A stretch of DNA of 41,208 bases from the sequence record PP384397, one strand, 5' to 3'. The first letter of the stretch is position 1, and each line of letters opens with the position of its first letter. The notes beneath the pieces are model-generated. The model did not search any database and was not told the origin of the DNA. It was given only the letters and a program-made list of their open reading frames with translations. The DNA is from Teseptimavirus T7. Shown piece by piece: positions 5,845 to 5,904 of this stretch. A program made the position numbers and the translations under genes.

Positions 5845-5904
5845 AAACACGTGGCAAACATTCCAAACCGGAGCCATACAGTACAAAGCACTCTTAGGCC
5901 TCTG
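5845..5904 (+). other. Synthetic 60-nt linker block of unknown origin (parses as three 20-mers)
   Basis: aaacacgtggcaaacattcc / aaaccggagccatacagtac / aaagcactcttaggcctctg; neither T7 nor recognisable vector sequence. Confidence 0.6.

Follow-up and report, generated by a model that had tools for sequence, protein, structure and literature searches.

Layout of the inserted cassette

The window, by which we mean the whole stretch of DNA that was analysed (41,208 nt, Teseptimavirus T7, sequence record PP384397), carries an mCherry insert of 1271 nt at positions 5845-7115, inside the phi1.1A promoter, and this length includes a 60-nt block at each end of the insert. The insertion begins 21 nt downstream of the gene 1 stop codon, and the expression cassette is pET/pIVEX-like in its overall layout. 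The left and right blocks are referred to as oho1 and oho2, and the features of the locus are as follows.

3172-5823, + strand: T7 gene 1 (RNA polymerase), with its TAA at 5821-5823; the same coordinates are annotated in the sibling record PP384394
5832-5844, + strand: left half of the phi1.1A promoter, caatacgactcac, promoter positions -17 to -5; V01146 puts the phi1.1A +1 at 5848
5845-5904, no strand assigned: oho1, an orthogonal overhang of 60 nt in which three orthogonal 20-nt primer sequences are joined, identified by its match to a primer tail
5905-6065, + strand: backbone of the template plasmid T7p14-mCherry, upstream of the promoter of the cassette, starting with the 3′ part of a primer, tacccacgccgaaacaagc
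6066-6144, + strand: added consensus T7 promoter taatacgactcactataggg, gene-10-type leader and ribosome-binding site (RBS), from the sequence and the annotation of a sibling
6145-6855, + strand: mCherry coding sequence, 236 aa plus stop, from the translation and the mCherry annotation in siblings
6856-6947, + strand: vector polylinker with a His6 coding stretch, from the sequence
6948-7055, + strand: copy of the T-phi terminator that closes the cassette, 99% identical to T7 24102-24210
7056-7115, no strand assigned: oho2, the right 60-nt overhang, AAAGGGGCCGTCAATATCAG, AAATAAGACGACGACCCTCG and AACGATGATGCTCACTCTCG, identified by a primer-tail match and present in PP384395
7116-7135, + strand: restart of T7 at wild-type position 5845 (phi1.1A -3), atagagggacaaactcaagg, from the alignment and the annealing part of primer gp1-oho2-s
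7177-7199, + strand: intact promoter phi1.1B, ttaatacgactcactataggagaac, with +1 at window position 7194; in V01146 phi1.1B is at 5923, to which +1271 is added in the right arm

Within the cassette, the added T7 promoter has its +1 G at 6083 and the RBS, aaggag, is at 6132-6137. A sibling record annotates the matching position as 'T7 promoter added for mCherry cassette'. The stretch at 5905-6065 is presumably backbone of the pBR322/pET type. The His6 stretch (within 6856-6910) is untranslated, since it comes after the TAA stop of mCherry. On its left, oho2 (the right block) borders the T-phi terminator of the cassette, and on its right T7 sequence restarts (atagagggac...; atagagggacaaac). The promoter phi1.1B is intact and can still drive genes 1.1-1.3, which lie downstream of the inserted terminator.

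Outside the cassette, the window corresponds to T7 V01146 with two lab-stock changes. In the alignment, window positions 1-5844 are T7 V01146 1-5843 plus one extra A at 1896, and the V01146 annotation of gene 1 is shifted by +1 here because of this extra A. Positions 7116-41208 are T7 5845-39937 with a single substitution, where the cassette end used for the right-arm alignment was set from the primer table and the junction sequence. The substitution, G for A at window position 23900 (wild-type 22629), leads to gp9 N227S and is also found in the sibling PP384393. Both the extra A and gp9 N227S are lab-stock variants: the mutation table of Levrier et al. gives +A at 1896 and gp9 N227S in all their phages (PMC10933291). 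The lengths add up exactly (39937 + 1 - 1 + 1271 = 41208, the window length), and the 160-nt terminal direct repeat is intact (1-160 and 41049-41208), which makes the window a complete linear genome.

Structure and composition of the 60-nt blocks

A preliminary description of this DNA, made from its letters, had placed exactly 60 nt of synthetic sequence between the broken promoter half and a vector fragment. The position and length are exact: window 5845-5904 reads AAACACGTGGCAAACATTCC, AAACCGGAGCCATACAGTAC and AAAGCACTCTTAGGCCTCTG, that is, 3 x 20 nt, with the left half of the phi1.1A promoter (caatacgactcac) as its left neighbour and plasmid sequence starting tacccacgccgaaacaagc as its right neighbour. 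The block of equal length that had been described at the right junction is oho2, at 7056-7115. All six 20-mers (oho1 and oho2) occur once in the window and nowhere in T7 V01146. The left block is foreign both to T7 and to the vector, in line with the earlier remark that it matches neither T7 nor a recognisable vector. Neither block matches the remaining genome exactly over more than 10-11 nt, which is the level of a random 60-mer, and the longest match that oho1 and oho2 have in common is 6 nt.

The six units are uniform in composition. Each ends in a 3′ G/C and contains 25-40% A, 45-50% GC and 20-30% C, and BamHI, EcoRI, HindIII and BsrDI sites occur in none of them. All six thereby pass Filter 1 of a published primer library (3′ G/C, A below 45%, GC 40-60%, C 20-30%, and no BamHI, EcoRI, HindIII or BsrDI site; PMC7445780). 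About 22% of random 20-mers satisfy the composition rules of this library, and six of six would do so by chance with a probability of about 1e-4. Furthermore, when read from left to right over both blocks, the 20-mers stand in strictly alphabetical order (AAACA, AAACC, AAAGC, AAAGG, AAATA, AACGA), for which the chance is 1 in 720. The composition and the order together take the 3 x 20 parse beyond chance, and the primer table of the authors who built the phage (see below) writes the tails in a way that is consistent with it. The original reading of the left block as three concatenated 20-mers is therefore supported by composition, alphabetical order and primer table alike. The 'aaa' with which each of these 20-mers was said to start is indeed found in the left block; the third 20-mer of oho2 begins aac.

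We found no sign of a function encoded in the blocks. When the concatenated 60-mers were folded on their own, the energies were -3.4 kcal/mol for the left block (z = 0.2) and -7.2 kcal/mol for the right block (z = -1.2), and for DNA and RNA structure, with both strands of both blocks folded, the energies were no better than those of shuffles. A scan of 5700-7300 for sigma-70 promoters and terminators returned none inside either 60-nt block. In the finished genome, oho1 has no designed biological function; it is transcribed without coding for anything and separates gene 1 from the cassette.

As a side observation, oho1 adds a PmlI site (CACGTG) at window position 5848, the sole other PmlI site being at 39329, and a StuI site (AGGCCT) at 5896, of which the genome has three more. 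These incidental sites could serve diagnostic digests.

Match to published primer tails

The preliminary description proposed a comparison with published phage designs, and this comparison yields an exact counterpart in the oho1/oho2 pair of the PHEIGES study, whose table equates T7_mC-g1-o with PP384397 (Levrier et al. 2024, Nat Commun, PMC10933291). All 60 nt of oho1 are identical to the 5′ tail of primer oho1-mcherry-s (Supplementary Data 2, PMC10933291), which anneals at 5905-5923, and oho1 is also the reverse complement of the tail of primer gp1-oho1-as, which reads CAGAGG...GTGTTT and then continues as gtgagtcgtattgatttggc. The half-promoter at 5832-5844 doubles as the 3′ annealing part of the latter primer, which ends in gtgagtcgtattgatttggc. 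In the same manner, oho2 is the 5′ tail of gp1-oho2-s, where it is followed by atagagggacaaactcaagg, and of oho2-mcherry-as, which anneals at the end of the cassette T-phi with its 3′ part caaaaaacccctcaagaccc. The sequences flanking oho1 are the annealing parts of its own primers, with gccaaatcaatacgactcac directly 5′ and tacccacgccgaaacaagc directly 3′ of it, and the primer table recovers both junctions of the window to the base, for oho1 and oho2 alike.

The fragment sizes listed with the primers fit the window for T7A1 (5903, i.e. 5843 + 60) and T7A2 (4896, i.e. 4836 + 60). The sole difference between the published design and the window concerns the mCherry fragment, which is 1266 nt in the primer table and 1271 nt both here and in PP384395; this 5-nt discrepancy may stem from the plasmid map behind the table. 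Since the sequence, the position, the pairing and the flanking primer-annealing sites are otherwise the same, the published overhangs are not merely similar to the blocks in the window but are the very object.

Two sibling genomes carry the same block. A megablast of window positions 5700-7300 against 50,697 phage records found that PP384395 ('Mutant Teseptimavirus T7 clone recombinant T7_mCg17o') has the full 1271-nt cassette at 100% identity, located after gene 17, and that PP384393 (T7_mCg10o) has most of the cassette, located after gene 10A. Both records come from the PHEIGES study. The oho1 sequences of these two records are identical to the one studied here, with different left flanks, and the published oho1 tail is common to the gp1, gp10 and gp17 primers (Supplementary Data 2, PMC10933291).

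We conclude that oho1 is almost certainly a designed assembly overlap that was left as a scar in the engineered phage T7-mC-g1-o of the PHEIGES study. The claim that the block is synthetic is thus borne out over its entire length by a published primer tail, and its origin, which had been given as unknown, is the oho1 tail of the PHEIGES primers. The block is an already published and ordinary cloning scar, and nothing about the block itself is left unexplained.

Source of the 20-nt units

PHEIGES cites Subramanian, Russ & Ranganathan 2018 as the source of the 20-mers (PMC10933291). The library described there comprises 185 designed 20-nt 'gene-specific primers', of which 166 were validated as mutually orthogonal (Synth Biol 2018, PMC7445780). 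A full-text literature search for the six 20-mers returned one paper, a preprint co-authored by Ranganathan, in which the middle 20-mer of oho1, AAACCGGAGCCATACAGTAC, is named 'GSP2'. All six 20-mers probably belong to the Subramanian library, to judge from the PHEIGES citation, the test of the design rules, and this single GSP2 match.

The alphabetical order of the units, together with the name GSP2, further suggests that the units were taken from the top of a sorted list, so that oho1 likely represents entries 1-3 and oho2 entries 4-6 of the library. If so, the 'aaa' starts need no design intent, as they would simply reflect the top of such a list; this is a likelier account of them than deliberate design. 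One point stands against a sorted list: if 185 entries were spread evenly over the alphabet, GSP107 (CCGTG...) would be expected to have a lower number.

Role of the blocks in genome assembly

The reason for such overhangs is given by the PHEIGES authors. When natural T7 sequence was used as overlap, wild-type and mCherry phages were obtained at a ratio of about 1 to 1000 (PMC10933291). They then 'adopted a library of orthogonal oligonucleotides' (their ref. 45), with sense and antisense copies on the fragment ends, and with these orthogonal tails the cassette was present in every phage and no phage was obtained when the cassette was omitted (PMC10933291). In their protocol, exonuclease III acts on PCR fragments mixed in equimolar amounts, and the insertions were confirmed by whole-genome NGS (PMC10933291).

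According to the PHEIGES article and its primer table, the T7 genome was amplified by PCR in pieces, with the 60-nt 5′ tail oho1 shared by the T7A1 reverse primer and the cassette forward primer, and oho2 shared by the cassette reverse primer and the T7A2 forward primer. Each tail consists of three 20-nt units from a library of designed and validated PCR primers that do not cross-hybridise. Exonuclease III resects the 3′ ends and is then inactivated at 75 C; the 5′ strands exposed in this way anneal through their 60 nt of complementarity as the mixture cools. The annealed genome is then expressed in the cell-free extract to give phage, with repair of nicks and gaps probably taking place inside the extract.

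As oho1 and oho2 are unlike each other and unlike T7, the T7 arms cannot join without the cassette, and for this reason the wild-type background of about 1 in 1000 is abolished. Since both of the joined fragments include the block, it stays in the genome. The preliminary description had also suggested concatenated primer sites. This is right as to the origin of the units, given that a library of orthogonal PCR primers is the cited source, and it fails as to their role, since oho1 serves here as a hybridisation overlap and not as a priming site.

Alternative explanations

Natural DNA was considered as a source of oho1, either as a T7-strain variant of the intergenic region between genes 1 and 1.1, or as a capture from the host, a plasmid or another phage. 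The intergenic position of the block would fit such an origin, and nothing else does: wild-type T7 is continuous across the insertion site, exact scans for the 60-mer found no match in 185,579 GTDB species genomes or in IMG/VR, and sensitive blastn searches were negative for 5,426 complete E. coli genomes and gave, for 72,556 plasmids, nothing beyond a chance match of 22 nt (E = 4). In a sensitive blastn search of 50,697 phage records, the 60-mer appeared only in the two sibling engineered T7 genomes. The contiguous alignment to a natural genome or a T7 variant that would have spoken against a synthetic block was thus found in none of GTDB, IMG/VR, E. coli, plasmids and phages, and we regard a natural origin as so improbable as to be negligible. 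The hypothesis that the 20-mers are guide-RNA target pads, intended for later cutting or counter-selection by CRISPR, draws on the 20-nt length of the units and on a mention of a possible extension to orthogonal CRISPR regulation in the library paper (PMC7445780). However, whichever strand is read, not one of the six 20-mers has an NGG directly after it. The trinucleotides in that place are, for the plus strand, AAA, AAA, TAC, AAA, AAC and ATA; for the minus strand, they are GTG, GGA, GTA, CAA, CTG and CGA. On the minus strand, the TTT runs that precede some of the 20-mers are due to their AAA starts. Furthermore, in those parts of the article that cover the method, PHEIGES is described as in-vitro assembly only, with no CRISPR step (PMC10933291). 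Target pads are therefore extremely unlikely, and we rejected them for the lack of an NGG PAM at all six units.

Two other uses would be compatible with a synthetic origin. A strain barcode for this particular phage would, like oho1, be synthetic, non-coding and unique in the genome, and the units do have a uniform, barcode-like composition. Yet the same 60-mer is present in PP384393 and PP384395 (T7_mCg10o and T7_mCg17o), which have the cassette at other loci, and one tail serves the gp1, gp10 and gp17 primers. Because it is common to three constructs, oho1 cannot tell strains apart, and the suggestion of a barcode, which is highly improbable, was discarded on this ground. Alternatively, oho1 could offer binding sites to primers for junction PCR or for sequencing, as a use secondary to its role as an overlap. 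In favour of this, the library cited for the units was validated for primers that work well in PCR and do not cross-react (PMC7445780), and the Ranganathan laboratory amplifies with one of the units (GSP2). On the other hand, the PHEIGES text and primer table make no mention of such a use, and there the insertions were confirmed by whole-genome NGS (PMC10933291). A secondary priming use is therefore improbable, if less so than the other alternatives. The evidence from primers, flanks and sibling genomes thus favours oho1 as a designed assembly overlap.

Relation to other overlap designs

The Subramanian set (PMC7445780) resembles the blocks in its 20-nt units and composition rules, and is the cited source, and the laboratory behind it names one of the units GSP2. 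It differs in purpose: its primers were intended for de-multiplexing oligonucleotide pools by PCR, and here three of them are concatenated as a hybridisation overlap.

The SHR sequences of Kuijpers et al. (Microb Cell Fact 2013, PMC3669052) are a close analogue in design. They, too, are 60-bp artificial overlaps made from combined barcodes and attached through PCR tails, they are non-homologous to the host genome, and they are left as non-coding scars (PMC3669052). However, their units are barcodes of the yeast deletion project, and they are joined by in-vivo homologous recombination in yeast rather than by exonuclease III annealing and cell-free expression (PMC3669052). None of the six 20-mers occurs in the text of Kuijpers et al. 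(PMC3669052), and oho1 as a yeast SHR sequence was rejected, the design being analogous and the sequences different.

Natural overlaps, as used in phage assembly of the Gibson, SLIC or exonuclease type, are similar in length (50 bp at the other T7 fragments) and rely on the same chemistry. They are scarless, yet they gave wild-type genomes at about 1 in 1000 in PHEIGES. Relative to them, the synthetic blocks remove the leak, and the cost is two foreign stretches of 60 nt each.

By-products at the junctions and implications

The insertion leaves several traces in the surrounding T7 sequence. The T at wild-type position 5844 (phi1.1A -4) is present in neither T7 arm; this loss is a by-product of the design and not a mutation, because the annealing parts of gp1-oho1-as and gp1-oho2-s skip the base. 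The class II promoter phi1.1A is bisected, such that the half for polymerase binding (positions -17 to -5) is joined to oho1 and the initiation half (7116-7125) comes after oho2. It so happens that oho2 ends in ACTCTCG, which is similar to ACTCACT, the promoter segment that was deleted (window 7109-7125). As a result of this resemblance, the BLAST alignment of T7 runs 7 nt into oho2, with two mismatches. A functional promoter at the end of oho2 is unlikely, since the upstream positions -17 to -11 mismatch.

The cassette also duplicates native elements. Its T-phi copy at 6948-7055 forms a direct repeat with the native terminator at 25377-25481 (105 nt at 100% identity), and positions 6060-6143 form another with the native phi10 promoter and leader region at 24152-24235 (84 nt at 98.8% identity). 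The cassette and native copies are about 18 kb apart, and recombination between them is presumably selected against here, as essential genes would be deleted.

A different outcome is seen in PP384393, where the locus (about 2625-3853) has oho1 and lacks oho2. In this deposited genome the cassette T-phi joins native T7 24211 directly, and oho2 is missing along with T7 24069-24210. The loss of oho2 likely occurred through recombination between the two T-phi copies.

The reported rebooting titre for the gene 1 locus is 5e6 PFU/ml, roughly 10- to 40-fold lower than at the gene 10 and gene 17 loci, which gave 6e7 and 2e8, respectively (PMC10933291). The split phi1.1A promoter, the lost T and the T-phi terminator placed upstream of genes 1.1-1.3 could contribute to this lower titre, with oho1 itself inert, and we consider this rather unlikely. 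If it were true, these side effects would amount to a small engineering lesson on insertion sites and not to a new biological system.

The odd blocks at the junctions are part of a published laboratory construct and should not be taken as biology. They provide a rule by which such blocks can be recognised: 60 nt, divisible into three 20-mers of uniform composition, in alphabetical order, and paired at the two ends of a cassette. Assembly scars of this kind persist in deposited phage genomes, and scars that lie beside duplicated elements can vanish by recombination, as in T7_mCg10o.
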